Origin: a virus
IMG/VR virus record: IMGVR_UViG_3300045988_153208
Direction: 5' to 3' (one strand)
Length of the DNA: 25,827 nucleotides
Positions within the stretch are counted from its first letter, which is position 1; each line of letters starts with the position of its first letter. The notes under the pieces were generated by a model. That model searched no databases. It was not told the DNA's origin and saw only the letters and a list, made by a program, of their open reading frames with translations. A program made the position numbers and the translations under genes. Below are positions 3,033 to 23,896 of the stretch, in pieces.

Positions 3033-3061
3033 AAACGGGACTCCTTTCTCTCATAATATAA

Positions 3062-3100
3062 ACAAAAAAATGGGTGTGAGAAATAATCTTCTCACACCCA
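3062..3100 (-). terminator. Intrinsic terminator hairpin (GGGTGTGAGAA / TTCTCACACCC) followed by a T7 run on the minus strand, downstream of gene 3147..3671.
   Basis: Inverted repeat 3072-3082 / 3089-3099 with A-run 3064-3070 on plus (T-run on minus). Confidence 0.55.
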
Positions 3101-3146
3101 TACACTTGATTATTCCTATTTAATTTTAAAAAATCAAATAGTTTAA

Positions 3147-3671: not shown

Positions 3672-3733
3672 TCCAAAATCCTCCTTTTACACTTATTTAT
3701 ATTATACTAAAAATTTAGTTTATTGTCAATTTT

Positions 3734-4813: not shown

Positions 4814-4826
4814 TTATTTTCTCCTA

Positions 4827-4868
4827 AAATAAAAAAATGGGGAAGAGGAATAAATCCTCTCCCCATAA
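4827..4868 (-). terminator. Hairpin GGGGAAGAGGA-ATAAA-TCCTCTCCCC plus U-run on the minus strand, between the major tail gene and the next gene. Possibly a partial terminator that sets stoichiometry.
   Basis: Inverted repeat 4838-4866 with A-run 4827-4837 on plus. Similar element at 10002-10040. Confidence 0.5.
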
Positions 4869-4883
4869 AAAATTTTGATTAAA

Positions 4884-5960: not shown

Positions 5961-5984
5961 AGTGTTATTTCCTCCTTGTATTTT

Positions 5985-6716
5985 TAATTAATGAATGTTT
6001 TTCATCCAATTATCCGGGGTCCCTTCAGGTTTACCACCAGCTAAACGCTAGCGCACATCCAGGTCCCAAGCAGTATATAGCGTATATCTCTCCATTAAAT
6101 CATATAATTGGAACATTGTCAGATTTGTCAAATCCTATAATGACATTGAACCTAATCCAATAGTCAAGATTGACATATACTAACTAAAAACACTTACATT
6201 CGAATTACCGTTTTGCGCGGCAACTCGCTGTCTCCCTCGCATTAGCTTTTGAGCAATCTCACGAGCCTTATCGTTGGCAGGATTGAAAGCCTACTAATCC
6301 ATCGGGCCATTGTGCATACAAAAGATTAAACGTAACACTTCTTGTAATGCTTCAAAATTATTTCCATCTATAGTAATAGGAGGAACACCTTCCTTTATAA
6401 ATAATAATGAGTTTGGTGTCACATTTATTTTATATGATGGGAATAATAAATTTAAAACATTTAAAATGTTAGCTTTTTTATCCTTTGTTTCATCCTATAA
6501 CATTATCGTCATAAATATCTAAAAATTATTGATACTGTCTAGAATAGTTTTGTCCTCTATAAACATAGTTTTATGTAAACAGAGGGTCTATGCTCCAATA
6601 AAAAAATCAGATTCCCCAATAAATGAAATTTCTTTTATCCTTGGTTGATGAGCGACTAAATTACATTCAGGAATCAACATATCAGTTCCGCAAATTAAAC
6701 TTAAGCGGTAATCCAT
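5985..6716 (-). CDS. Hypothetical virion protein, about 243 aa, with at least 7 in-frame TAGs including a TAG-TAG doublet at 6291-6296. Start is uncertain (ATG 6714-6716 or 6678-6680).
   Basis: About 230 consecutive codons were hand-translated on the minus strand with no TAA/TGA, in roughly 70% AT DNA. TAA at 5985-5987. The plus-strand ORFs 6310..6522 and 6623..6847 overlap it and look spurious. Confidence 0.45.
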
Positions 6717-7318
6717 TATTTACTAATATAATCCTTGAATTCTTTAATAAATTGTTCCTCTTTAATTTTGCCGCTATTTTTATCAGGATAAGTTGGCATA
6801 TATTTTTCATCTTCACCGCCATGAACAGTGCGATACATCAAACATAACCCAGCAAATTCATCAGTCAAAACAATCTAAGTAGCCCCCACAAATTCTAAAT
6901 AACCAATACCAGTCAATTTTTTCAAATTAAACATTGAATCAATCTCTCCAGCAATTTTATATGGGCGTAATGCATAATCTCTTAAATTCCATTGGTCAAA
7001 ATGACATATAATATCAAATTGAATAGTATTATCTCTAAACTCTGGATTTTCACTGGGAATAAAATTATCAAAATTAATTAATACATAATTTAAAACAGAG
7101 CCATCAACATATAATTTAGGCACTATTTTAATATTAGTTCCTAGTAAACTTAAAGACTAATCTTCAGTAAGATTAGGTTTTTCCATAGCATCACTAGTAG
7201 TATAATATAATAATTTTTTTAAACGATTATTTTTTAATATTTCATTAACAATAATCCCAGTATCTTTTTCCATAGATAGAAAACTTGATTTTGGAATATG
7301 ATATCCGTCTATTCTCAT
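6701..7318 (-). CDS. Hypothetical virion protein, 205 aa. In-frame TAGs at 6875 and at about 7138 and 7157.
   Basis: ATG at 7316-7318 with AAGGAG. Same frame as ORF-track 6875..7123. Hand translation runs to TAA at 6701-6703. Confidence 0.5.
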
Positions 7319-7340
7319 GTTTTCAATCTCCTTTTACTCA

Positions 7341-8495
7341 TTAAAACAATGATTCTACTACTATAGTTTTTCTACTAGTTCCATATACTAAATCAAACTA
7401 ACCACTATAAGTAGAGTCCCACTTAAGTTTAATCGTTGAAAATCCTTTATCATTAGTCCCTTCACTAATAATTCGGACAGGGACATCATTACCTTCAATT
7501 TTCCAAGTCCCTCGAACATTTTTAATATTTAAATTAAAATCATATTCTTTTTTAGGCTTAATAAAGGTTTCACCAACTATATTTAAAATTTTATTATTAT
7601 CTTTGTTATCATCTATAATTTTACGTTTTAATATTGGATCTGGTATTTTAAATACATCAGCCAATCCTGCATCTCGGTCATCTGTAAATTCATTAGCATA
7701 ATATTCAACAGCATTTACTTCAATAACACCAGTCATGCTAATATTATTTACAGCTTCAACTCTCCAACAGGTATCATAAACCGAACCATCTTCCGGCCAA
7801 ATATAAAACTTCTAATACCGTTTAAAAAATTTCAAAGTTTTTTCATTTTTAGGAATTAATAAATTTAAAGAATAATTTGGATTATCTACGCTAGTAGTAT
7901 GTTTTTGAATATAATCAATTTTAGTTTCTACTGGACCTCGATTAGCCACATAAACTACATTTAATTCATCATCCATCATAAATGGAATTTGATAGGTACA
8001 TCTACGAACGTCCCCACGGAAATAAGCTAATTCATCTAAATCCTATAAATAAATTAACCAATAAGTTCCAGTATTACACCATTCAAATACATCTCCACAA
8101 TTAAATTTATGTTCAAATCCAATCGAAATAACTTTATCATCATAATCCTATTTTAATTTATTAGGATTTATTAATGCTCGAACAGGAGGTAAAATATTTT
8201 TTTCTTTTTTAGTTTCTACCTCTGTGGCCGCACATTTACGCACCCAAGCCGCCTAATAAGAATATTTAGTAGCTTGGTCTAACGAATGTCGTTTATCTTT
8301 GATCATTCGCTACTATTGGGCAAAACCACCCGCACTCATTAATCTTTTAGCCATATCTAAACTACCATCAACTGAATCTGGCTAAGGAATTTTTATACTT
8401 GTATCACCTAAACGAGCCCCTACAAGATTTACACTTTTATTAGTATTTAAACCATAAGGTAATAATTTTTCCATCTTTTCTGGACGTTTTGGCAT
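7341..8495 (-). CDS. Hypothetical structural protein, 384 aa. About 12 in-frame TAGs, including a TAG-TAG doublet at 8310-8315.
   Basis: ATG at 8493-8495 with AGGAG (rc of about 8506-8510). All 384 codons hand-translated with no TAA/TGA. Ends at TAA 7341-7343. Includes ORF-track fragment 7398..7736. Confidence 0.5.
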
Positions 8496-8755
8496 TACTT
8501 TTTAATCTCCTATAATAAACTAATACATTCAAATACAGTTTTTCTATAAATTGAGAACTCAATATCATTTAAAACATTTAGCCCTTCTAATTTACTAAGC
8601 AACTATAAAAATCGCGGGTCCTAAATAAAAATTTCATTTAAGCCCGCAATTTCAATAATAACTGTATTTAATTGTTTATCCCAATCTTCTTCATTTTCTC
8701 TCATAGGGATTAATTTCCACAGTTGATTAGTTAATCTTACTATATTTTTCTCCAT
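8495..8755 (-). CDS. Small hypothetical protein, about 86 aa. Its stop overlaps the ATG of the downstream gene (TAATG).
   Basis: ATG at 8753-8755. Minus-strand translation MEKNIVRLTNQLWKL... has 3 in-frame TAGs and ends at TAA 8495-8497. Weak RBS. Confidence 0.3.
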
Positions 8756-8783
8756 GACTTCATTAGAAATATCTGTATGATAT

Positions 8784-9371
8784 TTAGTTATCATAAGGAT
8801 AATTCTTATAATGAAATACGCCCCAATTGGATTCGTATTTCCCTTCTACTAATTTACGACGTTTATATAAACGTTGCATATGGAATGATTGTCTCTAACA
8901 CTCACTTAATAAAGACATCAATTTTTGTAAATGATTAGCCTATGAAGTCATTTTAAAATCTGAACCACTATATTTCATACGAGTGTGTTCAATAGAAGTG
9001 ACTTGGCGTTGTACCCAGTTCACCATCATCAATATAGCTAAAATATTAATTTCCTCCGGTGTTAATTCAACTCCAAAAGATGAATGCTCTACCATTACAC
9101 GAGGAGGGCGGATTTCTGATTCTTCATCTGTTTCATCTTCCCACAAAAGACCAATTACAAAATCATCTTCTAATATTTCATCTTCATATTTAATTTCCTA
9201 ATCAATAGTATAATTATAAATATCAAATCTAGGAAATTCAAATTCAGGTAAAATATTTAAAAGTATCGCACGCAAATCTTTAATTGTGTCTTCTGGAGTT
9301 AATTCAATATAAAGGTCATCAGTAATTTTCCCAAGGAAGCGATTATAAATATCAGTGAATTTAGTTCCCAT
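8784..9371 (-). CDS. Putative head-tail connector/adaptor-type protein, 195 aa, with an acidic central patch. Three in-frame TAGs at 9198, 8940 and 8895.
   Basis: ATG at 9369-9371 with AGGAGG. Hand translation MGTKFTDIYNRFLGKITDDLYIELTPEDTIKDLRAILLNILPEFEFP... runs continuously to TAA 8784-8786. Includes ORF-track 8940..9146. Position downstream of the capsid gene. Confidence 0.4.
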
Positions 9372-9392
9372 GATACGCCTCCTATTTATTTA

Positions 9393-9980
9393 TTATTCAG
9401 CAGATTTAGTTTCAGTTTGCTTTACTACTTTGTAAGCATTCCCAGATGTACGACGTCCTGCGGGAGCAGATTCTGTAACACGTCTTTCAGCTGGCTTATC
9501 TGCGATAGTTTCCTTTTTATCATCTTCTTTACTAGCGCGGTCATTTTCAATAGCCTTATCTACGTCAAAACCAGTTTTAGCTTTTAGAGCTTCACGCTTA
9601 GCCATATCAGTAATAGGCAATTGAACAGACATAGTTTTAATCAAATCAATAACCCCAATAGGAGCAAAATCAAGAGCATCTAAAAATGCATCAATAGAAC
9701 CACTAAGAATTAAATCACGCACTTGCTCTTCTGACATATTATATTCAGGCTCACGATGGACATTTAAATCATCAGTAACTTCATTTTCCATAATCTGTAA
9801 GAAATTAGCAATTAACTCACGACCGCCGGGTTGATAAGTCAATTTTTCTAATTCACTAAATGGAATACGCTTTACTTCACCGGGTGCCCACTCACGTCTC
9901 AAGTTACTCTCAGGAATTCTATATACAACAACACTAGTACTTCTATTTTTTACATTAAACATATCTTCAGAATGAATCAT
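9393..9980 (-). CDS. Hypothetical virion protein, 195 aa, basic Ala/Arg-rich C-terminus. No in-frame TAG.
   Basis: Complete ORF in the track. ATG at 9978-9980 preceded by AAGGAG. TAA at 9393-9395. Confidence 0.6.
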   Translation of the reverse strand: MIHSEDMFNVKNRSTSVVVYRIPESNLRREWAPGEVKRIPFSELEKLTYQPGGRELIANFLQIMENEVTDDLNVHREPEYNMSEEQVRDLILSGSIDAFLDALDFAPIGVIDLIKTMSVQLPITDMAKREALKAKTGFDVDKAIENDRASKEDDKKETIADKPAERRVTESAPAGRRTSGNAYKVVKQTETKSAE

Positions 9981-10001
9981 TTTATTATCTCCTTTTTCTC
10001 T

Positions 10002-10040
10002 AAAAAAAATAAGGGGAGAGGGAGTAAATCCCTTCTCCCC
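10002..10040 (-). terminator. Hairpin GGGGAGAGGGA-GTAAA-TCCCTTCTCCCC plus U-run on the minus strand, immediately downstream of the putative capsid gene.
   Basis: Inverted repeat 10013-10040 with A-run 10002-10009 on plus. Sequence-similar to the 4838-4866 hairpin. Confidence 0.55.
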
Positions 10041-10065
10041 TTAAACAATAGTTATATTAAGGTTT

Positions 10066-11175
10066 TAATCAAATAGTACCACTCTTACGGCCATCATAGG
10101 TAACAACCTTACCAGTAATGCCATCATAATTCCAAGTATACATTTGACCCATTAAGGAAGTGTCAACATAAGAGCAAATGTTGTTAGCCAACATACAACC
10201 AACGCCGACCTTCTTATAAACCTGAATCTCACGAGAACGATCGTAATTGCTGAATTCATCAACAATAGTTCCACCCTCGAAAGCAATCTTTACAGGCTTG
10301 CCATCAACACCAGTAGGAATAATCCAAGCATAACCAGGATCAATAACCTTACGAGTATTACTTTCATCTTCGAAGCCCTACTCTAAAATAACAACCTTGG
10401 TTCCCTTATAGGTAGCCAAACGGCCAGTATTCCACAGCTCAGTCTTCATAGCTTCAGTATAACGCCAAGCTTCATTAGGAATCATACGAACAGCAAATTC
10501 ATAAGTACAATAAATAGTAGGAGTACCATAAGCAGAAGCAATGGTAATCAAACGATCCATAGCACCCTCATCAAAACCTGCTGCAGCAACGCGGTTAGCA
10601 GGAGGTAGCTGATTGATAGAAGACTTCAAAGCCAAAGCAACTTCCTTATAAATCAGTTCATCCATACCATCCATAATAATCTTGGTAACTTCAGCAAAAT
10701 CAACACGACCATCTAAGAACTCTTCGAAGCCGATTTGAGCAGCTCCGCCGATAGCAGAGGTACGGACCTCAAAGCTCTCGCTCTCAGCAGGTCCCAGCTT
10801 GAAGACTTCATAGATACCAGCCAGTCCAACACGAGTCACAAACTGCTTAGCACGTGCGCGTGTATTTAGAGGACGACGGAAAATGGGCTTATCACCCTGA
10901 GCAAACTGCTTAACTTCAGCAAACTGCTCATAAGACTGAGAAACCTTCTTAGGAAGAACTTCATCCAAAGTCTCCTCAATCATTGAGAAAATTAGATTTT
11001 TATTTTCACGATATAGAGCATTGGTACCAGCCAGCTCGTTCATCTCATTACGTAAAGTATCGTTCAGAGCCTCATAAGAAAGGTTCTGACCATTATAACT
11101 GTAAGCCACAGGAGAAGAAGGATCAGCCTTAGCAACAGTCTTCATTAAAGCAACTAAATTGTTTCTATCTAACAT
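10066..11175 (-). CDS. Putative major capsid protein, 370 aa. One in-frame TAG at 10378-10380.
   Basis: ORF-track 10378..11175 continues in frame through TAG to TAA at 10066-10068 (315 nt in frame). ATG at 11173-11175 with AAAGGAGAG. Position scaffold-decoration-capsid as in lambda/SPP1. Followed by a strong hairpin. Confidence 0.5.
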
Positions 11176-11192
11176 TATTCTTCTCTCCTTTC

Positions 11193-12128
11193 TTACGCAA
11201 TACGTAGAATCTTAGCGCCACGTTGTCCATCAGGCATAGTATATACCTTAACAACCTGCCACTTCATATCCTGACTCTCATCTTTTACAAGAATTCCGTC
11301 AGCAGCTGCTGGAGCTAAAATATCACCAACAGAAACACTATCTTCATTAATCATATTAGTAGTATAATGATCACCAACATTAGTCTTGAAGACACGAGGA
11401 ACCATTGCAGTGCCTGGAGTCATACGCTTCTCATGATAAACACCAAGCTTCTTATATGGATCATTAGTCCAAGTCAGCTCTTCGTAAATGTCAGCAACAT
11501 CAGTTAGAACCTTATCATAAGCATACTTTACAGGCACAGGAGTCTTAGTCTGATTGGTCTTAGGATCAATCTCATACTCTACACCATTATAAGTAAACTT
11601 ATTGTCCTTAACATCATAAACTTCGCCAGCGATGGTAACAGTCTTTAGACCCTGATCTAAAGCAACAGTGTGCTCAAGCACCTTGTGATCAGCACCAGTT
11701 TCATCAACACCATTCCAGAAACGTCCACCATATTCAACCTCGGTATGCTCCCAATCGTATGGAGAATAAATACGAGCCTGATAGTCGTCCTTTAGCATAG
11801 CAAATTCGCAATCCCACTGCTTAGTTCCATCAGGATGATCGCGATATAACTTAATCTCATTATAAACTAGCATCCACTCGCCCTTGCCAGTAAAATTCAC
11901 TTCACCAATACCATTGGCATTAGCAGCGTAATCATACTTGACAAACTGACCGTTTTCAAGAATATTAATACCCTTGTTAGCAGGCAACTGAGCATAAATT
12001 TGAGCGGTTCTTTGTGCAGACAGGTGATTTGGCTCAACCTGACCATAACCAAACTCAACATACTTAGCCTGTGACTTAGGTGGATTTTTACCAACGCCTA
12101 AACGAGAATTTAAAAAATCCTTAAACAT
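11193..12128 (-). CDS. Capsid-associated protein, 311 aa. Decoration-like by position between scaffold and capsid; could alternatively be the major capsid protein.
   Basis: Complete uninterrupted ORF. ATG at 12126-12128 with AAGGAGG. TAA at 11193-11195. Confidence 0.55.
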   Translation of the reverse strand: MFKDFLNSRLGVGKNPPKSQAKYVEFGYGQVEPNHLSAQRTAQIYAQLPANKGINILENGQFVKYDYAANANGIGEVNFTGKGEWMLVYNEIKLYRDHPDGTKQWDCEFAMLKDDYQARIYSPYDWEHTEVEYGGRFWNGVDETGADHKVLEHTVALDQGLKTVTIAGEVYDVKDNKFTYNGVEYEIDPKTNQTKTPVPVKYAYDKVLTDVADIYEELTWTNDPYKKLGVYHEKRMTPGTAMVPRVFKTNVGDHYTTNMINEDSVSVGDILAPAAADGILVKDESQDMKWQVVKVYTMPDGQRGAKILRIA

Positions 12129-12146
12129 TTAAGTATGTCCTCCTTA

Positions 12147-13736
12147 TTAGTTTTTATTGGCTGATTCTAGAACAGCCTTGACCCAAGCTGGCATTCCAGC
12201 ATCTCTGTCATCATCTAAATTGCTTAAATTATAGGTAGTTGGGCCTTTATCATTATTATCATCATCAAGGTTAAAATTAACCTTGTTGCGAACACAAATA
12301 ACAGAAAGTTTTGCTTCAATATCATCAACAGAATACTTATCAATGTTATCAATAACATCTTTCTTATCATCATCAGACAGCATATAGAATGATTGAATCA
12401 TAGCTTCTTTATCCTTGCGTTCAATACTATTTTTAAACTCAGTTAAAGAAGTATTAGTTTCACTTAGAGTTTTATTTTCAGCCTCTAATAAACTAAATTT
12501 ATTTTGTAATTCTTCATATTCTGCCTTTAAGCTAACATATTCTTCAATTTCATCCAAGGAATACTTTTTCTTTTTCTTTTTATCCTCATCATCTTCTGAA
12601 GGATCGTCATCTTCATTTTCTGACTTTTGACCATTATTTTTAGAAGAACCATCATCTTTTTTGTTCTCAGGGTCGCCAGAATTATTGCCCTTATCATCGT
12701 TTGCCTTTTTATTTTCTTCTTCTTCTTGCTTTTTCTTAAATTCGGCTTCATAAGCTTCAACCGCATCTAAAGCAAACTGAGGCTCTGCTGCTGGAGTATA
12801 AGATTTAGTTACTTCAATTAAACCTTCACCAGGAACAAGACCATCAGAATCACTCAAAGAAAAGTTTAAACGATAATATTTCATATCTCCGCGGTCTTGA
12901 AGAATAGCAAATTTTTGACTATTATCTTCAAAAACGCCATCAATACGATATTTAGAGCAATAATTGTTAGAGCCATCAGGGAAAGCCTTATTTACATATT
13001 CCCATAAAGCACTCCATAGAGAATCTCCGATTTCTACGGCATATCTATTAAACACTTTTGCTCCTCCTTCTTTTAATAATTCTTTTAGTTCGTTCATCAT
13101 TGAGTATAGTTCATTTTTAAAACTATCATCAAATGAAAGAGAAAACTTTGTAATAGAGGAGCCTTCGAAGCAAGGTTCACACTCTTCTCCTAAAATACAA
13201 AGTTTAGAAATAATTGCTTCATTAATAATGAAAAACTACGGCTTTCCATTATTATCTTTCGTCCAAGTTCCATCTAAAGTACCTTCATCGAGCTCCATAG
13301 AATGATTATTGCCTTGCTCAATGATGCGCTTACATTCTGGATATTGGCCGGTCCATAAATATCCTTCAGTCATAAGATATTCATGTTCATTAACGCCATC
13401 ATCTAAAAATTTCTAAAACCAAACCTTGGCACCTAAATCTACAAAACCATAAGGTTTAGTAGTGTCTTTCATTTCAAACTTTCCGTTTGAAATATCAATA
13501 ATTCTATTGTGTTCCTCAAAATCTCCATTAGATTCATTATAAAAGCCAACAATAGGACTGCCAGGGAGACTATTAGCCATCTCCCTCGCAGTTTCTTTAG
13601 AAATAATGCTTCGATTGCGATTTGGTTCATCCCCAACGTAGCAAACTTTAATTTGGCATTTAGAAATCAAAGGATTAATAGGAGTTACATTAATAAATTC
13701 ACAAGGCGTTTCAAGTTTAATACTTTGATGCTTCAT
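12147..13736 (-). CDS. Capsid scaffolding protein fused to an about 210-aa N-terminal domain (possibly prohead-protease-like), 529 aa. In-frame TAGs at 13413 and 13236.
   Basis: ORF-track 13413..13736 and 12147..13100 are in the same frame. Hand translation of 13101-13412 shows no TAA/TGA. ATG at 13734-13736 with AAGGAGG. C-terminal half is highly acidic with coiled-coil-like repeats (EYEELQNKFSLLEAENKTL) and a K-run, typical of scaffold proteins. TAA at 12147-12149. Confidence 0.5.
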
Positions 13737-13747
13737 GATTTACCTCC

Positions 13748-15409
13748 TTAATTCATTGACTCTTTATTTTTTATGGTTTTTTCACTTTTCTAATCATCAG
13801 CCTTTTCAGGTCGCCCAGACTATTTTGTTTCAGTAGTCTGTTTTGTAGTAGTCTATTGATTACTACTTCCTGAATTATTTTGTGTTTTATTCTAATTGTT
13901 TGAACCTTTATTACCCAAAACATCTTGACTACTCATAGTAGAAGACATTAATGGTGGGATCATAATTTCAGTTAATTTCAACACATCATTTTCAAATACC
14001 GCAGTATTTAAAATAAAACTCTAAGAGTGACCAAGAGCAATTTGAGGTAGCATCTTAGAATAACCAAGTTGCGTTTGTTCTTTATATAATTTTGACATTT
14101 CTTTATAATTATATTGTGTAGTTTCAAGCATATAAAATTTAAAACTATATTTCTTATTGTTCGCAACTTTCATCTTTACTATTCTATCAAAAAAAATGTT
14201 AAATTGCAACAACAAGTTTCTAACAGTTGATTCATCATTAAGGATAGACTTCTCTAATGATAAATTACCATCAGTATTAAATAGATTTTGAGAAATACCT
14301 AAATTATTATAAACAGTACGTTCAACTTTTGCTAAATCATCTGTAGTAGTTGTAGTATTTTTATCTGATAAATCAATAGATTGAACATCAGTAAATGTTG
14401 TTAAAACATCAACACCAATAGCTCTTGATAACATAGCAACAGCATTATTATGTATGTCACGAGATTCATCAATATCAAATATTAAATCGCCATTTTTATC
14501 CATTGGAAGTTTTTGAACAATAATTTTTAACAACTTCTACATTTGTTTTCTGCGGTCTAAATCTTGAGCAGCATCTAAATCCATAAGAGCAGGGATAGAA
14601 TTAATAAATGGTGGGACATCACTACCATTAAAATTAAATTTCACACTTAATTCTGGAGATAGTAAATACCAACTTCCACTATAATCTCCCTTAATATCAG
14701 GAAGTAATTTTCCTTTCTTATATAAAACATATCCGCGCTAAAATTCTTCGGGGAATAATTTTAATACGCGCATACGATAATTAGGATCTGGAAACTAATC
14801 AAAAAACCGCATGTCAAACTCAATCGCTGGCATACCAGCCACAAAATATCTAGAACGGCAATAACTAGCAGGTAATTCTTGTAGCATTAAACTATTTGCA
14901 GATTGCACTATATATCCATAATAACAACCATTTTTCATAATACTTTGAGCAATATCACCGCAGATTTTTTTAATATAAGTATTATCTAAATAATTTAATA
15001 ACTTTGAAAAATCTTTTAAAACTTTTTCATCTTTTACTGTATCATCTAAAATCTCTGGAGCGACATACCAATCATATCTATACAAATAAGCAAAATAATT
15101 ACATACTCGCTCATAAATGCCGCTTATATCATAAAATAAATTAGAAATTCTACGCATTTCAACAATATCACGATTTATCATAGCTCGTAATACATCATTT
15201 TTAGTGACCATGCGACATGGTCCACGACGATTAGGATATAGCCGAGCAAATGACCCTAAATCTAATACAGCATCATCTAATGTTTGAACCCCAACTTTTA
15301 TTTTACGATATTCTGTTGGATCAGCAGTTCGATAATCACTTGTTCCATTGCTGATATTAAATCCTTTGGAGTGGATGATTTCCTAACGTGATAATTCTTT
15401 AGTATCCAA
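13748..15409 (-). CDS. Portal protein, 553 aa, with a Q/T/N/S-rich C-terminal tail and multiple in-frame TAGs.
   Basis: Putative TTG start at 15407-15409, 7 nt after AAGGAGG. Same frame as ORF-track 14795..15211 and 14021..14533. Hand translation continues to TAA 13748-13750. Located between terL and scaffold. Sequence FYDISGIYERVCNYFAYLYRYDWYV is portal-like. Confidence 0.55.
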
Positions 15410-15421
15410 AATTCCACCTCC

Positions 15422-15778
15422 TTAATATCCAGCTAATTGCATTATATAATCATATGTAATAAGATTTTCATCTGTATAAGGAATCTCTATTAATTTAAAA
15501 TCATGTAAAGCACAAAAACGTCGTTTTTGATTATCATTATATTGTTGTTGATATAAACCTTTTTTACCACCAAATTTTGCGCTAGGCTCATAATGCTATT
15601 TACCCTAATATTCAATAATAAAATCAATTCTACCATCATCATCAAAAACGACAAAATCGAAACGTAAGGGTCTGCCACTTGGTGCCTTCAAATCTGGGAA
15701 AATATACTCCATCTTAAATGGTAATTCAGCTTGTCGCAAAATCTCTTCAATTTTAATTTCGCCTCTAGACGCTCTCAT
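15422..15778 (-). CDS. Small Vsr/DUF559-like (PD-(D/E)xK) endonuclease, 118 aa. Possible free-standing homing endonuclease between terL and portal. Two in-frame TAGs.
   Basis: ATG at 15776-15778 with GAGGAGG. Translation ...LRFDFVVFDDDGRIDFIIEY[TAG]GK[TAG]HYEP... carries a D..(I/V)E..G..H-type motif. TAA at 15422-15424 overlaps the portal RBS. Confidence 0.35.
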
Positions 15779-15788
15779 AATTACCTCC

Positions 15789-17522
15789 TCAATTCAAGAA
15801 ACACCAATCTTTAGCATTAAACTTTTTACGTTTCTTCTTTTTATCTTCTTCTAATTTTAAATAATATAGTCCATATTCAAAAGCAGAAAATTTATCTTTT
15901 CGGATACTTTTATTTGCTTGTTTCAGGATAATATTTACTCCTTCAGTTTCTTCACGCAAATTCATCATTTCTTCTTTTAATATGGAAGTTAATGTAAATG
16001 GTTTTAATTCTTCTGCCCTCTATTCTGGAGTCATAGTTTGACCTTTCTTTTTAGCAAGAAGTTTATTTTTTGCTACGCGCTCATCAATTAAAAATTTCAC
16101 TTTTCCAGAAGCAAGTTGTGATTTAGCAATCGCGTGAGCTTCTGTATTAAGTGGCGCATTAGCTTTTATAATATACATAGCATCTAATACTGTATTAGAT
16201 GTTTTATATTTTTTATAAAATAAATCATCGTCATTAACAACACCAAAATCAGGGAAAATTTCATTGGTTTCAGGATCAATCTACGTCTTAACCATGTAAT
16301 CAATTAAACCAATTCCTAAACCATTACCATCAATTACAATTCTATCAGCATTATATTTATAATATAATTTTTTTAATTTAATAGTTTGGTCTTCAAAATG
16401 TTCATCAGATAATGTATATATATTCACTAGACTTTTAATCGACCCACCTTGTGATTGTGGAGTTACTTTAAATACACAAATAACTGAATCGCATCCTTTA
16501 CGACCAACGTCGACAGCAAGTACATAAGATGCTAATTTTGAATTACGCCCGGATGCTTCATATTCAGGCTAATTTAATATTCTATTTCTATCAAATATTT
16601 CAGCATTAAAAAATGCATCTTCTACAGTGCCAGACCATTTACTTTCATATTCTCGATCAAATGAACTTTCATTGAACGTTCCGTCCATTTTTAGGTCTTT
16701 AATAAAATTCGCATCTAATAATTTCATTAAAACAGGAATACGATAAGTACCACCCATAATAATAGATTGCTAAGGTTTAACAATCTCCCAAACTAATAAT
16801 TGGATTAATTTATCATAGGGGAAAGTATTTTTATATCCAGCAGTAGTAATATAAATTTGAGATTTATTAAGAGTTTCATCAGGTTGAGTAGTACCATCCA
16901 TACACATACGAGAAATATTCATTGTAGGAATAATAACTTGTGATAGAATATCACCATCAACACCAACACACTCTTCAATTAAACCACCATGGCGACGTTT
17001 ACCACGAGAAGACTCTCTTGCAGCAATATTATCAAAATATGAACCATTTTTAAATACATATTTAACATAATCTTTACCTTCAAGAGTTTGACCACGGCGC
17101 CAATCTATTTCTTTCTAAAATGCAGGAATAAGAGTACAAATTTCTTGAACTTTTTCTTTTACAATTCCAGCCGCTTGTTCTTTACCTCCAGAAGTAATAA
17201 ATAATTTACATCTGGGATATAAAATCGCACGACACATTAAGACCATCATTGACAAAAAAGATTTTGAATAAGCACGAGGGAATACAGCATAAATATATTT
17301 ATGACGCATCGCAGCGCGCAAAAAGATTCTCTAATAAAAATAGAGTTTAAAATGTTGAGGGCCGCCATCAGGTCCTGCCATGAAGTCGATAAACATATCT
17401 GGGTATTCTCTCCAAAAGGCTATGTACTATCTTGCTTCTGGTATAATTGCACGAAGACGGTCCTCTGAAATTCCAATCTTTTTACGCTTCTAAGATAAAT
17501 CAAGTAAATCCTATAAAGCCAT
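15789..17522 (-). CDS. terL: Terminase large subunit, about 577 aa, with multiple in-frame TAGs.
   Basis: ATG at 17520-17522 (AAGGA RBS). Same frame as ORF-track 17115..17321 and 16569..16757. Contains a Walker-A-like motif (AVFPRAYSKS), an ..RHGGLIEE.. segment, and a C-terminal nuclease-like region. TGA at 15789-15791. Confidence 0.6.
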
Positions 17523-17523
17523 A

Positions 17524-18720
17524 TTATCCTTCTAAATTTCTTAAAGTCTGAGCATCTATTTCAGATTCTTCCTCAAGGAAATCATTATATTCAATTAAAT
17601 CTTCATCTTTAAGATGATCGATTTCCTCCATCGTTAAATCTTCTTCAATATCTTGGTCTTCTTCTTTATTTTCTTCTTCTTGCATTTTCTTAATAGCCCC
17701 TTCAATGAGATTACCTAGATTCATCTCTTCAGTGACTAATGTGTGTGTATAATTCTTTAAATCTTGTAAAGTTTCATCAACTTTATCTTTTGGACCTTCT
17801 GTATAATACCGAGGGATAAATCCTTCAGTCTCACACATGGCTACTAATTCTCCAATAGAATCAAATGCTTCTCCTGTATCTGCTTTGTTTTGAGCGGCGG
17901 TGAAATTACCTGATTTCATTAGACTATCATAAACCTTGCTCATCTTTTGGAAACCTTCGATATCACCAATATCGATCAACTAGTTTGCTTTTAAGGATGT
18001 CTTACAAATTAATTTTAATGTATCAATATGACCAGCGCCGCGGATATCATAAGAACTCATCATTTCTTCATAGAGTTGCTCTAGTTTAACCCATTCTTCG
18101 GGTTTATACGCTTTACCCCACTTCATACGAAGATATAAAATATCTTCTTCTGTTAAATCGAGGTCATCTGCTGGGTCATGTTCAATACCATTCTATTGAT
18201 CAAAATAATCATCACCATCTCTAAAACGTTCTGGTAATTCAGGAGTGTAAGGTTTTAATTCTTCTTCTGGAATAGCGACAGTAGATTTAGCAATAGCTGT
18301 TGCTATTTGCTGGGCATCATAACCTTGTCGTTTCATAGTTTGTTCTAATTTATTATTAGCCACTTCCTATAAAAACTCAGAATCTTTCCATCGATAATCT
18401 CTATATTGTTTAAGTTTCATTTTGGACAAATATCTACCTAAAATACTCATACCAGTTAATTTAGATTTATCTTGTCCATATTTTACCATCAATTTACTCC
18501 ACTCATCTGGAACATAAGGTACATCAATTTCTTGTAGAATCCACATATAAGTTTCTGGATTCCAATTATCTACAAGCATTGTAATACATTTTTTACATTG
18601 AGGGAGTTTTCCATCATTTGGATATTTTTCTAAATTATTAGATGTATAAAACTGGTCAGCGCCCATAGTTCTATTACATCGTTCGCAATAATATACTTTT
18701 TTATCATTATCTACAGTCAT
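17524..18720 (-). CDS. 398-aa protein with an N-terminal Cys4 zinc ribbon (CERC..x23..CKKC) and a very acidic C-terminus. Possible terminase small subunit or DNA-packaging partner. In-frame TAGs at 18367, 18193 and 17980.
   Basis: ORF-track 18367..18720 and 17524..17979 are in the same frame. Hand translation of 17980-18366 shows no TAA/TGA. TAA at 17524-17526 sits immediately before the terL ATG. Confidence 0.4.
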
Positions 18721-18756
18721 AATTTTCCTCCTTATATCTATCCAATAACAGGCATC

Positions 18757-19827
18757 TCAAAATTATAACTGTTTGCCCTTGTTTTTAGCATTACGGCATT
18801 TTTTACAAATACTATAATAACCATCTTTACTAGTTTTATTTTTGCTAAAATATTTATTATGTGCTAATTTAATTTGCCCACAGCGACTACATTTTTTATA
18901 TTTACCTTTTGCTTTATGTAAATAATAATCATATAGGTATTGGTCTTCAGCCGCAGAGGCGATTAATTTTGGAATTTTATTGCGCCATAAACTAGAAATA
19001 TATTCTAAACTATGAGTAATATTAAATTCCTCTTGAATTTTCTTTTGAATGTCTATATTCTATAATCCATCAATTTTATATTCAACTATTCTATCATATA
19101 AGGGATAATCTTTAAGAGCAATGGTACATAAATTATCGAAATCTTCCATAATATACCATAAATCTCTTTCAAAATCTCCCCAACTATCTTGCTTTAAACG
19201 AGAATAATTACATAAAATTGCAGAACATACTCTAGGGTCTAAGAGTGAAACGCCATCCGGAATTGGATAACCATCATCATCAAAAATGCAAGTCGTGTCC
19301 TCTAATGGAATAAAATTTCTTGAACGAGTAATTTTAGTCATAACAATTGGACGACGAACTGCATTTTTAATAACATACTAATCTTTACGCATTTCAATAA
19401 TAGCACGTTTAATTATAAATGCTTCGCGTCCTTCACTAACTCGTAATTTGGCTTCCCAAGTAGTAATGGCGTCTCTTAACTATTTTAAATGAGGTATTTC
19501 TTCTATATCTTTTTTAGTAATTGTAATCTTAGGCTAAAATATTGTATTTTTATTTTCAGTAATTAAATTATAAATTCCATCTTCGCCATTCTCAAATTGG
19601 GAAACAAGACCTTCAAAAGATGTTTCACGCTTATTAACTGTTGCCATACGATTATCAGTTAATAATTTACGCTCCTTTTTCTCTTGTTTCTCCATACAAA
19701 GAATGATATAGTCCCCTAATATTTCTAAATATCGAGGAGAGGGGTCTGGGGTTTCCTCTAATATTTTCTTGACTAATTCATTTCTTTCTTCTGGAGTTTG
19801 TAAGGAATAATCTAATTTTATCATCAT
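18757..19827 (-). CDS. 356-aa hypothetical protein with a C-terminal Cys4 zinc ribbon (CSRCGQ..x17..CKKC). First gene of the leftward operon. Four in-frame TAGs.
   Basis: ORF-track 19534..19827 and 19060..19341 are in the same frame, joined through TAGs at 19534, 19480 and 19378. TGA at 18757-18759. ATG at 19825-19827 with GGAGG. Confidence 0.45.
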
Positions 19828-19852
19828 TACCTCCAGATTTTTTTACGTCTTC

Positions 19853-19880
19853 ATTATACAAAAAATTTTTCCAGGTGTCA
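19853..19880 (-). promoter_or_regulatory. Leftward sigma70-type promoter (TTGACA-N16-TGtTATAAT) for the packaging/structural operon.
   Basis: The rc of 19875-19880 is TTGACA. The rc of 19853-19858 is TATAAT, with TG upstream. Confidence 0.4.
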
Positions 19881-19936
19881 AATTTTAATAAATGCATTTA
19901 AAAAATTTTTAAACGATACTATTAATTGGAAAAAAT

Positions 19937-19965
19937 TTGACAATAAAAAAAATTTTTTGTATTAT
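19937..19965 (+). promoter_or_regulatory. Rightward sigma70-type promoter (TTGACA-N17-TATTAT) for the early operon, in the divergent intergenic region.
   Basis: TTGACA at 19937-19942 and TATTAT at 19960-19965. AAAGGAG RBS, then ATG at 19996. Confidence 0.4.
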
Positions 19966-19995: not shown

Positions 19996-20394
19996 ATGGT
20001 AATTGCTATTATTATATTAAGTATATTATTAATATTATCTATTATATATAATATATTGTTTACAAAAGGAGTCGCTAAACTTCTTGACCCTGAAAACATT
20101 GAACAAAAATATAATTTAATAGCAGATTATTATGGAGATGCAAATAACATTGAAGAAAGTTTCCCTTGTTGTTTGCTATTACATCTCCAATTTAATGCGA
20201 AGGAATCCGCAAAAATCACAGACTTCTCTAATTATGAAAATTCTAATATAATCGCTTATTCAGTTTTGTCCAAGGGCCCGCCACCGCCTGGATACGCCAA
20301 TCAACTGGAAGAAGACGGCTCTATAAGAATATTAGTCCACAATGTTCGAGTAAATAAATATAAGGATGGTGAATATTTTTGGGAGCCTATGTAA
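19996..20394 (+). CDS. Membrane protein, 132 aa (N-terminal transmembrane helix, PPPPG motif).
   Basis: Complete ORF with good RBS. Hydrophobic N-terminus VIAIIILSILLILSIIYNILF. Confidence 0.6.
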   Translation: MVIAIIILSILLILSIIYNILFTKGVAKLLDPENIEQKYNLIADYYGDANNIEESFPCCLLLHLQFNAKESAKITDFSNYENSNIIAYSVLSKGPPPPGYANQLEEDGSIRILVHNVRVNKYKDGEYFWEPM

Positions 20395-20585
20395 TTGTTA
20401 TCTTTTGGATAATCATTTCAGCATTAGTAATGTTTGAATATATTGATGCAATTCAAAGCGCCGGTGAAAATAAATTAATTGTTTGTCTAATATTTTTTAT
20501 TGGTGGCCCAATATTTGCTGCGAGTGATTTATTACAAAGAATTTTAGATATATTTTTACCGGAAGGGTGGAATGGTGATGACTGA
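20379..20585 (+). CDS. Small two-TM membrane protein, 68 aa (TTG start).
   Basis: ORF track; AAGGATGGTGA upstream. Overlaps the preceding gene by 16 nt. Confidence 0.4.
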   Translation: MGAYVIVIFWIIISALVMFEYIDAIQSAGENKLIVCLIFFIGGPIFAASDLLQRILDIFLPEGWNGDD

Positions 20586-20604
20586 AAAATAGATTAAATA
20601 TATT

Positions 20605-20904
20605 TTGAAAAATTTTAAACGAGGCACTACTATTCTATTTATGGGTGTATCATTTAATCAATATATTAATCTTGAACAATTAACTGAAGCAGGATATACT
20701 TGTATTTTATTGGGTGAAGGTCAAGATTATTGGCCATATATTCAAGATAATATGATTATTTATGTGGATAATATTGATATTAAAATTATGCGATTAAATT
20801 GTTATCCATTACATTGCCCTATTTTTGTATCTGATAGAAATCGAGTAATAAATGCAGAAGATAGAGATGTGCGCGTTTGGGCAGAAGTGTTAAAAGAGGA
20901 GTAA
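20605..20904 (+). CDS. Hypothetical protein, about 99 aa (start uncertain: TTG 20605 or ATG 20641).
   Basis: ORF track; tightly packed operon. Confidence 0.45.
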   Translation: MKNFKRGTTILFMGVSFNQYINLEQLTEAGYTCILLGEGQDYWPYIQDNMIIYVDNIDIKIMRLNCYPLHCPIFVSDRNRVINAEDRDVRVWAEVLKEE

Positions 20905-20905
20905 T

Positions 20906-21199
20906 ATGAAAATTTATAAATATTTAATTGAAACTCCAGGGTCAACTCATATTATGGACCATCTGACTGATATTGTATCTACTGGATTAGATGTAAATAA
21001 TAATCCATGCGTATGGGCAGTTTATGATGAAAAAGTACCCAAAAAATATTTTCAAATTAATGCTGTTGGCACAGGTTGGGAATTGGATAAATATGTAAAT
21101 AATAATGACAAGTATTTAGGAGTTATTAATGATGGTGAGTATATTTGGCATATCATTAAGTCTTCTGGAGAAAAATGTCATATAATGGAGGAGAAGTGA
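20906..21199 (+). CDS. Hypothetical protein, 97 aa.
   Basis: ORF track; RBS AAAGAGGAG immediately upstream. Confidence 0.55.
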   Translation: MKIYKYLIETPGSTHIMDHLTDIVSTGLDVNNNPCVWAVYDEKVPKKYFQINAVGTGWELDKYVNNNDKYLGVINDGEYIWHIIKSSGEKCHIMEEK

Positions 21200-21203: not shown

Positions 21204-21521
21204 ATGGAAGATGGAAAAAATTATTTTGATATTGTAATGCGAGAAGGCCAAGCAATAGTTCATAATGAAGGTTCTATTCATTAGGTTGATAGTTTAGGCC
21301 GTCTTGTTTTTCCTAAAAATTTAAGACAAAAATATGGTATTACTCCTGGTGACCGCATGGAATTTTATACTATTGAATATAATGGTGAAGTTTATGTTGG
21401 AGTGCGAGTGAGTAAACGATATGGTAGTAGAATAGAGTATTTACGCGCTAAAGAAGTATTAGATGATTTGGGAATTGAGATTCCTCAAAAACTAACTGAT
21501 GCTATTAATGGAGTAATGTAA
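21204..21521 (+). CDS. AbrB/MazE/SpoVT-family (swapped-hairpin) DNA-binding protein, 105 aa, with an in-frame TAG at codon 27 (21282-21284).
   Basis: GGAGGAG RBS. Hand translation MEDGKNYFDIVMREGQAIVHNEGSIH[TAG]VDSLGRLVFPKNLRQKYGITPGDRMEFY... carries the classic VDxLGRxVIPKexR..GI..GD motif. TAA at 21519-21521. Absent from the ORF track because of the TAG. Confidence 0.55.
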
Positions 21522-21522: not shown

Positions 21523-21666
21523 ATGCCTAAGTATAAAAGTTTTGGAAATGCCCTCGCTGCTAAAATGCAGAAAAAGGCTAATTATTATGCTACTAAAGCA
21601 GTTCATCAAATTGTATGGGGTGAAAACCCTAAACGTGGTCGTCCTAAGAAGGAGAATAAGAAATGA
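21523..21666 (+). CDS. Small basic protein, 47 aa (..GRPKKENKK).
   Basis: ATG at 21523 with GGAG 9 nt upstream. Stop TGA overlaps the next ATG. Confidence 0.35.
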   Translation: MPKYKSFGNALAAKMQKKANYYATKAVHQIVWGENPKRGRPKKENKK

Positions 21667-21746
21667 TTCTTGAAGCATTGGCATTAATAGGATTAATTCT
21701 ATTTTTTCCTATCTGGTTTTTTGGTAGAAATAAAATTAAAAAGTAA
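21663..21746 (+). CDS. 27-aa hydrophobic peptide (MILEALALIGLILFFPIWFFGRNKIKK).
   Basis: ATG at 21663 with AAGAAGGAG RBS. Single predicted TM segment with a basic C-terminus. Confidence 0.35.
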   Translation: MILEALALIGLILFFPIWFFGRNKIKK

Positions 21747-21981: not shown

Positions 21982-22041
21982 TCATTCACAATAAATACAA
22001 ACTCCACAAAAAATCTCTCGCAAATTTGTGTATTCTGCCAA

Positions 22042-22210: not shown

Positions 22211-22291
22211 TAAGATTGTTAAAAATTTAACGATGTAGCAAGATTGTTAAAAGATTAACAATGTAGCAAGATTGTGAAAGATTTAACAATC
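22211..22291. repeat. Three tandem about 28-bp repeats (tAGCAAGATTGTTAAAArtTTAACaATG), each containing the palindrome TTGTTAA-N4-TTAACAA.
   Basis: Copies at 22211-22235, 22236-22263 and 22264-22291, read directly. Confidence 0.8.
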
Positions 22292-22295
22292 ACTC

Positions 22296-22400
22296 AACCA
22301 AGAGAGGACAAGGACACGCACGGCACAGTGGACAAGGCAAAGCGAGCCAACGAGCGAGCGACCAACAGACAAAGAGAACAACAACACAACACAACACAAT
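22296..22400. other. About 100-nt tract almost devoid of T on the plus strand (A/C/G only; CA and CAA repeats, ACAACAACACAACACAACACAA).
   Basis: Direct reading; extreme strand composition skew. Confidence 0.8.
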
Positions 22401-22408
22401 GATAGATA

Positions 22409-22430
22409 CATTGTTAATGTATTAACAATG
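22409..22430. promoter_or_regulatory. Operator-like palindrome CATTGTTAAT-gt-ATTAACAATG (10-bp perfect arms) between the two skewed tracts.
   Basis: Direct reading. Confidence 0.6.
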
Positions 22431-22432
22431 TA

Positions 22433-22505
22433 GTATAGTAGTATGGTATGGTATGGTAGGGTATGGGGTGGGGTGGGCTATGGGTAGTGGGTAGGGAGAG
22501 AGAGT
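22433..22505. other. About 73-nt C-free G/T/A tract with TATGG/TAGGG repeats and a G-quadruplex-type motif (GGGGTGGGGTGGGCTATGGGTAGTGGGTAGGG).
   Basis: Direct reading; four or more GGG runs separated by 1-5 nt. Confidence 0.75.
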
Positions 22506-22726
22506 AGACCAACAATAAGAGATGCGGACGCGCTTCCCACCGGTCGGCTCACCGGGAACCGCGCACAACAAATCTAATGTAAGTATTCTATTTCTCTTTT
22601 GGGTTCATCATCGTTAACGGCCCTAATCGCCCAAGAATAAGCCCTCGCACAATTGCCAAACAACACAGCAGGGCAGGCGCTGAACCGCGCGTATCCCGCA
22701 ACACACAGCTCTCACAGAGGAGCGAG

Positions 22727-22753
22727 CAAGATTGTTAAAAGTTTAACAATGTG
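22727..22753. promoter_or_regulatory. Operator-like palindrome copy (CAAGATTGTTAAAAGTTTAACAATGTG).
   Basis: Matches the repeat consensus. Confidence 0.55.
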
Positions 22754-22840
22754 AGAGCCAAGAGCAAGAGAGTAAAGAGTGCGCTTGCACAGGTAGCAAG
22801 GAGGATACACACGGCACAGTTGATACATTCGCTGACCGAG

Positions 22841-22866
22841 CAAGATTGTTAAAAAATTCACAATGT
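22841..22866. promoter_or_regulatory. Operator-like palindrome copy (CAAGATTGTTAAAAAATTCACAATGT).
   Basis: Matches the repeat consensus. Confidence 0.5.
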
Positions 22867-22890
22867 GTGGATGTGGTGAAGTCGCTGTTT

Positions 22891-22911
22891 AATTGTTAAA
22901 AATTTCACATT
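22891..22911. promoter_or_regulatory. Degenerate operator-like copy (AATTGTTAAAAATTTCACATT).
   Basis: Partial match to the consensus. Confidence 0.4.
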
Positions 22912-22990
22912 CGCTGTTGGATGCCGAACACGGTCGCAACGCCCCAGACTTCACCACATTAAAGTGTTAAAGAAAAAAAATTGCAAATGC

Positions 22991-23012
22991 GATTGTTAAA
23001 ATAATCACAATC
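22991..23012. promoter_or_regulatory. Operator-like copy (GATTGTTAAAATAATCACAATC) about 40 nt upstream of the promoter at 23054.
   Basis: Matches the consensus. Confidence 0.5.
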
Positions 23013-23053
23013 TTCATCCCGAAAATAAATAGGTTATTTTTGAAAAAACCTCT

Positions 23054-23081
23054 TGACAAATTGCCCTATGTGTGCTACAAT
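23054..23081 (+). promoter_or_regulatory. Promoter TTGACA-N16-TGcTACAAT for the two-gene operon 23112-23550.
   Basis: TTGACA at 23054-23059 and TACAAT at 23076-23081. Confidence 0.55.
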
Positions 23082-23111
23082 GATTACAGTAAAACAAAGG
23101 AGGACGATACA

Positions 23112-23348
23112 ATGTCTAACATCTATGGAGTCTGCTACACCACGAAAGAGCCTGTTGTCTACAACAGAGGGACACAGTGGGAGAAAACCTGTTCCGATTT
23201 CCTGTTCGTTCAGGCAAACAAGGACAATGGCACAAAGCTGGTGGACAAGCTGAACGCTATGCTTGCCGCAGGTGTGGAAAAGTACGAACTGCTGGACATG
23301 ACCAAGATTGACCATTTCTATCTTGACAAGTCCGAGGAAATGTATTAA
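23112..23348 (+). CDS. Hypothetical small protein, 78 aa.
   Basis: AAAGGAGGAC RBS and ATG at 23112. No in-frame TAG. TAA stop. Confidence 0.6.
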   Translation: MSNIYGVCYTTKEPVVYNRGTQWEKTCSDFLFVQANKDNGTKLVDKLNAMLAAGVEKYELLDMTKIDHFYLDKSEEMY

Positions 23349-23361
23349 GGAGGAACTGACA

Positions 23362-23550
23362 ATGACACGCACTATCGCTAATACCTACATCTGTATCAAC
23401 AACGAGGGACAGATGCTCTCCATCATTGCCCGCACGGGCAACGAAGCCCATAACATCGCAATAGGGTTTTTGCGGAAAGCAAACATCGTGAGCGTTCGCC
23501 GTGTATTCAAGTCTGGCAAGCTGGGCAAGGAAATTCTGAAAATTAAATAA
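23362..23550 (+). CDS. Hypothetical small basic protein, 62 aa.
   Basis: TAAGGAGGAA RBS and ATG at 23362. TAA stop followed by the terminator. Confidence 0.6.
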   Translation: MTRTIANTYICINNEGQMLSIIARTGNEAHNIAIGFLRKANIVSVRRVFKSGKLGKEILKIK

Positions 23551-23554
23551 AATA

Positions 23555-23584
23555 AACAGGGCGCAAGCCCTGTTATTTTTTTTA
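23555..23584 (+). terminator. Intrinsic terminator AACAGGGC-GCAA-GCCCTGTT plus T9 (GNRA tetraloop).
   Basis: Direct reading. Confidence 0.75.
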
Positions 23585-23603
23585 TAAAATGCGAAAAAAA
23601 CTA

Positions 23604-23632
23604 TTGACAAATATAAATAAGCGTGTTATAAT
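23604..23632 (+). promoter_or_regulatory. Promoter repeat copy P1: cTATTGACAAATATAAATAAGCGTGTTATAAT (TTGACA-N17-TGtTATAAT).
   Basis: TTGACA at 23604-23609 and TATAAT at 23627-23632. About 90% identical to the copies at 24022 and 25281. Confidence 0.6.
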
Positions 23633-23664
23633 GAATACAGAAATTAAGAAATGAGGTACACAAA

Positions 23665-23853
23665 ATGAAGAACATCTATGAAATCGAGAACATCATCGAC
23701 GAAATCCCCGCTGATGATTGGGCTGGCATTTGTAATCTGATGGACTACTACTATCAGTCGAATTTCTCCGCTGACGCTGAACAGAGACTGGCAAGGGCAA
23801 TCGCTCCTTACGGCTTGACCGCAGAGGAAATCCTGACCTGGGACGCTGAATAA
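23665..23853 (+). CDS. Small acidic protein, 62 aa.
   Basis: RBS AAATGAGGTACACAAA and ATG at 23665. TAA at 23851-23853 lies in the terminator loop. Confidence 0.55.
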   Translation: MKNIYEIENIIDEIPADDWAGICNLMDYYYQSNFSADAEQRLARAIAPYGLTAEEILTWDAE

Positions 23854-23868
23854 GCGTCCTATTTTTTT
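23841..23868 (+). terminator. Terminator GGACGC-tgaataa-GCGTCC plus T7.
   Basis: Direct reading. Confidence 0.6.
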
Positions 23869-23876
23869 GCTGTTGG

Positions 23877-23896
23877 ATTGTTAAAATTTTAACGAG
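23877..23896. promoter_or_regulatory. Operator-like palindrome copy (ATTGTTAAAATTTTAACGAG) between the terminator and the antisense promoter.
   Basis: Matches the TTGTTAA-N4-TTAAC consensus. Confidence 0.5.

Follow-up and report, generated by a model that had tools for sequence, protein, structure and literature searches.

The window analysed here, the whole 25,827-nucleotide stretch of the IMG/VR virus record IMGVR_UViG_3300045988_153208, contains a gene that is interrupted by an in-frame TAG at codon 27. In the explanation that we regard as very probable, the gene encodes an AbrB/SpoVT-type regulator of a large human-gut phage (related contigs: ~100-200 kb) that uses genetic code 15, and TAG27 is an ordinary recoded glutamine codon. 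Direct reading of the window placed the start codon, TAG27 and the terminal TAA in one frame, and the translation runs MEDGKNYFDIVMREGQAIVHNEGSIH, the residue encoded by TAG, and then VDSLGRLVFPKNLRQKYGITPGDRMEF...GVM up to the TAA; both the frame and the translation agree with the original prediction. The predicted tryptic peptide across the TAG27 position is EGQAIVHNEGSIHQVDSLGR.

Table 1 Coordinates of the AbrB-like gene and of the features surrounding it in the window
Feature	Position	Strand	Remarks
TAG-recoded late block	1..19842	-	tape measure, structural proteins, portal, terminase, YonD/YonG-like genes
First late gene	18763..19842	-	phrog_5767 'sigma factor' match; 4 in-frame TAGs
Promoter of the late operon	19853..19881	-	TTGACA-17-TATAAT; perfect consensus, divergent
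Promoter of the + operon	19937..19965	+	TTGACA-17-TATTAT; sigma-70/sigmaA-type
Operon gene 1	19996..20394	+	132 aa; N-terminal hydrophobic helix; no TAG
Operon gene 2	20578..20904	+	108 aa; TAG at codon 5
Operon gene 3	20906..21199	+	DUF7352; 97 aa
Shine-Dalgarno-like GGAGGAG	21187..21193	+	GGAGG core ends 12 nt before ATG
AbrB/SpoVT-type gene	21204..21521	+	105 sense codons + TAA; ATG 21204-21206, TAA 21519-21521; codon 27 TAG read as Gln
Swapped-hairpin (SpoVT/AbrB) DNA-binding domain	21261..21392	+	residues ~20-63; Pfam and PDB alignments and fold match
In-frame TAG, codon 27, decoded as Gln	21282..21284	+	in strand beta1 of the DNA-binding domain
54-aa remnant	21357..21521	+	sole ORF listed at the locus under code 11
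C-terminal half	21393..21518	+	beta-hairpin and two helices in the model; common to the ~85-aa family
Operon gene 5	21523..21666	+	47-aa basic protein; no family match
Operon gene 6	21663..21746	+	27-aa hydrophobic peptide MILEALALIGLILFFPIWFFGRNKIKK; ATGA overlap with gene 5
Palindrome ATTGTTAA-N4-TTAACAAT	22215..23896	.	nine copies; candidate binding sites

No in-frame ATG, GTG or TTG was found between TAG27 and codon 52, and since the next in-frame start is the ATG at 21357, no standard-code product can hold the AbrB domain. The domain is whole only when TAG27 is decoded, because the AbrB alignments begin upstream of the TAG, at residues 17-20; the regulator thus appears only with TAG 21282 read through, just as had been predicted. 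Annotation under code 11 indeed truncates the gene, and the public protein catalogue contains the corresponding truncated call (P0006: 51 aa, starting with MEFYTIEY). The gene is hidden from standard-code callers only: code-15-aware pipelines already call it at full length, and the same catalogue holds four such proteins (P0001-P0004, 102-105 aa); at every locus, the DNA behind their 'Q27' reads TAG.

The phage is recoded throughout, in accordance with the original prediction. Treating TAG as sense doubled the total length of stop-to-stop ORFs (>=100 aa) and extended the longest one from 363 to 1016 codons, and the other two stop codons gave no comparable ORF gain when treated in the same way. 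The minus strand from 1 to 19842 tiles into 18 tight ORFs only with TAG as sense; its codons include 93 TAG, 156 CAA and 32 CAG. Every gene ending inside the window stops at TAA or TGA, and TAG is never a terminator. PHROG matches obtained with TAG-to-Q translations span the TAGs of the portal gene (4e-82 over residues 8-485), the terminase large subunit, a virion structural protein and the 'sigma factor'. The claim that code 11 would mis-split every structural gene applies to most of them but not to all, as 16 of the 18 late ORFs carry TAG; fragmented late genes can be seen in the related locus L018.

Since no close homolog has a sense codon at position 27, we drew the assignment of glutamine from other TAG sites. 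At codon 42 of the AbrB-like gene, the window has CAA and the lineage of L002 has TAG; at codon 5 of the 108-aa gene, TAG occurs in the window, L001 and L002, and CAA in L008. Further swaps between TAG and CAA/CAG were found among close relatives. In L019, a syntenic relative that uses the standard code, Gln (CAA/CAG) faces four of six TAGs of the window, among them all those whose context is conserved (TIF-Q-PK, RKD-Q-Y, DGL-Q-N and KAN-Q-L). Because TAG swaps with CAA/CAG and faces Gln in L019, we conclude that TAG is read as Gln, i.e., that the phage uses genetic code 15, which has been validated by experiment in other gut phages (PMC9523058).

We infer the mechanism of TAG decoding from the sequence. 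ARAGORN detected no tRNA gene, suppressors included, in the window, 30 loci and ~55 kb of related contigs, and a permissive tRNA scan of 21700-23100 returned nothing. A release-factor gene was likewise absent from the window and from the same ~55 kb of contigs, and Rfam gathering scans of the same sequences identified no family. The suppressor must either be of an atypical kind or be encoded in another part of the 100-200 kb genome. The known code-15 phages (crAss-like, Lak and other recoded clades; bioRxiv 10.1101/2021.08.26.457843; PMC9523058) also read TAG as Gln, and they are likewise AT-rich gut phages in which recoded codons are concentrated in late genes beside a TAG-free gene set. The phage described here differs from them in the SPbeta-like appearance of its structural module (YonD/YonG domains), in the sharp GC contrast between its code compartments (30% versus 45%) and in that no suppressor tRNA was located in the window and ~55 kb of related contigs. 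It had no match in the GenBank phage collection by DNA or protein, and no carrier of the AbrB-like gene was present in the isolate/MAG genome collection. The GGAGG ribosome-binding sites and the sigmaA-type promoters suggest a Firmicutes host.

If TAG27 were a genuine stop, the locus would be a pseudogene or would consist of a gene for a 26-aa peptide followed by untranslated sequence. The frame is indeed interrupted under code 11, and the search for a suppressor tRNA in the window and ~55 kb of related contigs was negative. Nevertheless, comparison of the window with L001, L002, L008 and L009 gave dN/dS values of 0.13-0.64 for codons 2-26 at pS of up to 0.5-0.9, a pattern of selection that resembles the one downstream of TAG27, and K5-M12 are invariant despite synonymous changes. 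Purifying selection on codons 2-26 therefore indicates that the frame is read continuously from M1 through TAG27. In addition, the domain alignment crosses the TAG, the whole late module needs TAG as sense, and TAG swaps with CAA/CAG. Because selection is purifying before and after the TAG within a single frame, a pseudogene and a separate 26-aa peptide (the outcome against which the original prediction had been set) are effectively excluded; the genuine-stop reading is close to refuted, and we consider it extremely improbable.

The identity of the 105-aa product as a protein of the AbrB/MazE/SpoVT superfamily is supported by several searches. The translation with Q at position 27 matched Pfam PF04014 above the cut-off (27.7 bits versus 24.7; E 2.7e-6) over residues 26-63, spanning TAG27, and the public homologs P0001 and P0002 carry a precomputed PF04014; no Pfam match was obtained with the 54-aa code-11 remnant. 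A match to phrog_4681, which is annotated as antitoxin, was found in PHROGs (5e-10), and the NCBIfam model for the AbrB-family domain, TIGR01439, scored just below its cut-off (25.9 bits versus 28.3). A profile built from homologs of four lineages matched the solved N-terminal domains of AbrB (1yfb, 1z0r and 2k1n), Abh (2fy9) and SpoVT (2ro5 and 2w1t). These alignments extend from query residues 17/20 to 56/63 and start 7-10 residues upstream of TAG27. An AlphaFold2 single-chain model computed from 44 family members (pLDDT 79) had 1yfb_A as its best Foldseek match (TM 0.74 normalised to target; probability 1.00; borderline E 1.7e-3), followed by SpoVT, Abh, Sso7c4 and C68, with MazE only at rank 27 or lower. 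The Pfam, PHROG, profile and fold matches all agree with the AbrB/MazE-family protein that had been proposed originally. Residues 20-50 are without strands in the monomer model, as would be expected for strands that pair across a dimer, but this does not count as evidence for one.

The phage protein shares with AbrB, Abh and SpoVT of B. subtilis, its best sequence and fold matches, the pattern x-D-x-L-G-R-hydrophobic-x-[IF]-P-x-x-L-R and the arrangement of a small DNA-binding domain at the N-terminus and a separate domain at the C-terminus. It differs from them in an extra N-terminal extension of ~19 residues, in being encoded by a phage with a recoded TAG, and in that its function as a regulator is predicted. 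For AbrB, R8, R15, R23 and R24 have been proposed as the arginines that contact DNA (PMC4022651). In the register of the profile alignment these residues correspond to H26, R33, R41 and Q42, so two of the four arginines are kept, with H26 and Q42 in place of R8 and R24; the TAG27 residue aligns with K9 of AbrB. The C-terminal half is not recognisably AbrB-C and is presumed to be an oligomerisation domain. Two proteins of archaeal virus-plasmid hybrids, C68 of pSSVx (3o27) and C56 of pSSVi (7xi6), are also among the fold matches and are likewise small AbrB-fold proteins of mobile or viral genomes, but they are archaeal, remote in sequence and without the shared C-terminal half. The C-terminal half of a 90-aa public protein from a 1.3-kb contig (P0005) is 88% identical to that of the phage protein, and its N-terminus is unrelated and has no AbrB domain; this protein may be a recombinant or an artefact of assembly or frame.

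The AbrB-like gene is the fourth gene of a + strand operon of six, which is transcribed divergently from the late block. Alignment of the intergenic region showed that both divergent promoters are conserved across lineages and revealed no extra operator motif beyond them. The first late gene had no NCBIfam match; its match to the 'sigma factor' PHROG has an E of 1.6e-53, and its product ends in a Cys-rich CxxC...CxxC motif. In all relatives, this sigma-factor-like gene and the AbrB-like gene form a conserved divergent pair. YonD_N and YonG_N domains are present on related contigs in the same order as the window's genes. The gene order in SPbeta is yonG-F-E-D, and on this comparison the structural module resembles that of SPbeta-like phages. 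On the other side, the 27-aa peptide gene that ends the + operon is conserved in L001, L008 and L009. Downstream of the operon, at 21838-21868, CCCGAAACCCACCCCCCCGGTCGG is followed by TTTTT; this stretch was not called by a simple terminator scan and matched the 3' end of the sroH model weakly (E 0.24), and it may be the terminator of the + operon.

The operon had been described as early in the original prediction. Its assignment to an early class is doubtful, as its GC3 of 0.14-0.27 and its scattered TAGs group it with the recoded AT-rich compartment and not with the GC-rich cassettes. These cassettes form the second compartment of the genome: from ~21800 on, the sequence is GC-rich (43-49%) and free of TAG, compared with 30% GC in the recoded late genes.

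An antitoxin function had also been offered for the protein, which in this case would belong to a type II toxin-antitoxin pair of the MazE/VapB/PrlF type. Such antitoxins are of similar size and belong to the same Pfam family, the PF04014 model itself being named 'MazE_antitoxin'; phrog_4681 carries the antitoxin annotation as well, one cluster of relatives is labelled PrlF-like by IMG (the names of the other clusters being uninformative), and small genes of unknown function are present downstream. However, neither a toxin-family domain nor any other known informative domain was found in the neighbours of the AbrB-like gene, and the two downstream genes code for only 47 and 27 residues, so there is no adjoining toxin gene of the kind that accompanies these antitoxins. 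The AbrB-like gene itself is the one constant component of the operon; its neighbours differ from lineage to lineage. The L002 lineage lacks DUF7352, and L019 has no gene other than the AbrB-like one between the divergent promoter and a gene-free gap. Furthermore, among solved structures AbrB, Abh and SpoVT come closest, the fold likeness to MazE being only weak, and the C-terminal half is structured and conserved. With no toxin gene and a synteny of regulatory character, the antitoxin alternative is disfavoured, and we regard it as very unlikely. Since there is no toxin neighbour and the L019 ortholog stands alone, the gene context points to a transcription regulator as the most likely function of the AbrB-like protein.

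To follow the history of the TAG codon, we compared 31 related loci (the window counted), which take in seven IMG/VR contigs (100-197 kb) and 14 further metagenome contigs (up to 201 kb), at least one of the latter being labelled as human gut. TAG27 was present in all 31, including lineages whose synonymous divergence is near saturation. The late genes are a poor baseline for judging this conservation, being 92-100% identical between relatives. In the same loci, all four TAGs of the sigma-like gene and all three TAGs of the YonG-like gene were equally invariant, and we rejected the idea that the conservation of TAG27 is special.

Homologs had been expected to reveal the amino acid at position 27 through a sense codon. 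The close ones did not do so, all 31 having TAG, but more distant orthologs gave lysine. An exhaustive profile search identified a wider family of ~85-aa proteins that have both halves in common (255 matches at E < 1e-3), and in the consensus of this family R-K takes the place of H26 and TAG27. Within it, the proteins of L017, L019 and L021 are syntenic orthologs with 30-38% identity. Their genes are divergent from a 346-369-aa sigma-like gene and a YonG_N gene, have a DUF7352 neighbour in two of the three loci, and are followed by a gene-free gap and then by small-ORF cassettes. L017 and L021 are TAG-recoded and L019 uses the standard code; the regulator gene has no TAG in any of the three, and the column of TAG27 is AAG or AAA (Lys). 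As judged from these alignments, TAG27 is derived in the subclade of the window and differs from AAG by one substitution. It would probably have arisen from the ancestral AAG by that single substitution and not as a dedicated switch. In L019 (contig NODE_461_length_44466), four late genes contain no TAG, and the two of them that were aligned are 62-64% identical to the window. With phages of the standard code and TAG-recoded phages side by side, the clade offers a natural series in which to study how recoding begins.

The position of TAG27 nevertheless raises the question of a selected translational gate, with translation stopping after 26 residues until the suppressor is active, so that a change in transcription (early shut-off or late activation) would be coupled to the change of code. 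A gate of this kind would fit the timer model for recoded phages of Borges et al. (bioRxiv 10.1101/2021.08.26.457843). The TAG is in all 31 loci even at near-saturated synonymous divergence, it falls within the DNA-binding domain close to the 5' end, M52 offers the first restart codon, and the operon promoter is of the sigmaA type, so early mRNA is possible. Yet TAG sites in general are just as invariant, as the 4/4 and 3/3 sites of the sigma-like and YonG-like genes show, and the orthologs in the recoded loci L017 and L021 have Lys and no TAG. Moreover, the TAGs of the operon are distributed over genes and lineages: besides codon 5 of the 108-aa gene in the window, L017 has its operon TAG in DUF7352 (5261-5521) instead of the regulator, and the L002 lineage has extra TAGs in the 108-aa gene, at codon 42 of the AbrB-like gene and at codon 16 of the 47-aa gene (10346-10489). 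In this comparison the TAGs look scattered, not targeted. We found no specific support for a gate and consider it unlikely. The same low likelihood applies to its extension, in which the regulator would sense that the phage has switched its code: its mRNA would be made from a host-type promoter, the full protein would appear only after TAG suppression, and the protein would then, through the palindromes or the divergent promoters, shift expression from the TAG-free cassettes to the recoded late genes. An ordinary recoded glutamine codon remains our preferred explanation of TAG27.

Candidate binding sites for the regulator are present downstream of the operon. The ATTGTTAA-N4-TTAACAAT palindrome occurs nine times versus 1.25 expected, with eight copies in a gene-free stretch, and it is present in all close relatives. 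The stretch is 850 bp long, and three of the copies are in tandem at 28-bp spacing. The gaps of L017, L019 and L021 contain a different palindrome instead, AGTTAG-N6-CTAACT, in 2, 2 and 4 copies, respectively (L017: 6526/6672; L019: 6327/6375; L021: 6553-8054), which is absent from the window. At the level of clades, the change of palindrome parallels the change of the beta1 residues from R-K to H-Q. Proximity and this co-variation are the only ties of the palindromes to the AbrB-like protein; the co-variation, a correlation only, is compatible with its binding to them. The palindromes do not overlap the strong promoters and could serve as operators, as an origin or as a partition site.

Other elements were observed in the same region. 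Between the palindromes, at 22295-22500, lies a strand-asymmetric C/A-rich run (ACAAGGACACGCACGG...CAACACAACACAACACAA), followed by a G-rich run (GGTATGGTATGGTAGGGTATGGGGTGGGGTGGGC) that looks able to form a G-quadruplex. A gene for a 31-aa hydrophobic peptide (MSIIYKVVRFITAVAVVAGTGILMCLICLPH) occupies 22096-22191, with a promoter at 22042-22070 and a terminator at 22178-22198, and L002-L007 have a called gene of 31 aa in the corresponding position. The small ORFs of the cassettes each have their own TTGACA-17-TATAAT promoter, GGAGG site and hairpin-plus-T terminator. The TAG-free GC-rich region covers 21800-25827 in the window and 13500-20315 in L010 and is also found in L031-L036; it measures at least 17-24 kb and reaches the ends of several IMG/VR contigs. 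It resembles the host-takeover module in the terminal redundancy of SPO1. Perfect consensus promoters on the minus strand at 23934-23963 and 24840-24868 point into terminators or hairpins without an ORF, and one minus-strand promoter is convergent with the + promoter at 24773-24801 across a GC-rich hairpin (GCGCGCCCACGGTCCTGGCGCGC). The ORF-less promoters may give rise to small or antisense RNAs; no Rfam match was obtained.

Taken together, the regulator would act as a dimer or tetramer on transcription of the phage programme, its likeliest targets being the divergent promoter region, the palindrome cluster at 22215-23896, or both. It may also take part in the early-late switch, as originally proposed. 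In the window's clade its synthesis would need the TAG-suppression machinery of the phage, and for this reason the protein would appear together with the products of the recoded middle/late genes rather than with those of the TAG-free GC-rich cassettes.

Taken on its own, the AbrB-like gene is an ordinary example of two things that are already known, phage regulators with an AbrB fold and phages with code 15. For annotation, it illustrates how standard-code pipelines cut a regulator to a remnant of 51-54 aa and shatter the late genes. For the biology of these phages, it provides a clean case of a regulator that one clade can make only by virtue of stop-codon reassignment, within a module of divergent sigma-like and AbrB-like genes that is conserved in recoded and standard-code relatives alike. 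The clade is thus a convenient series for studying how and when recoded codons enter regulatory genes.
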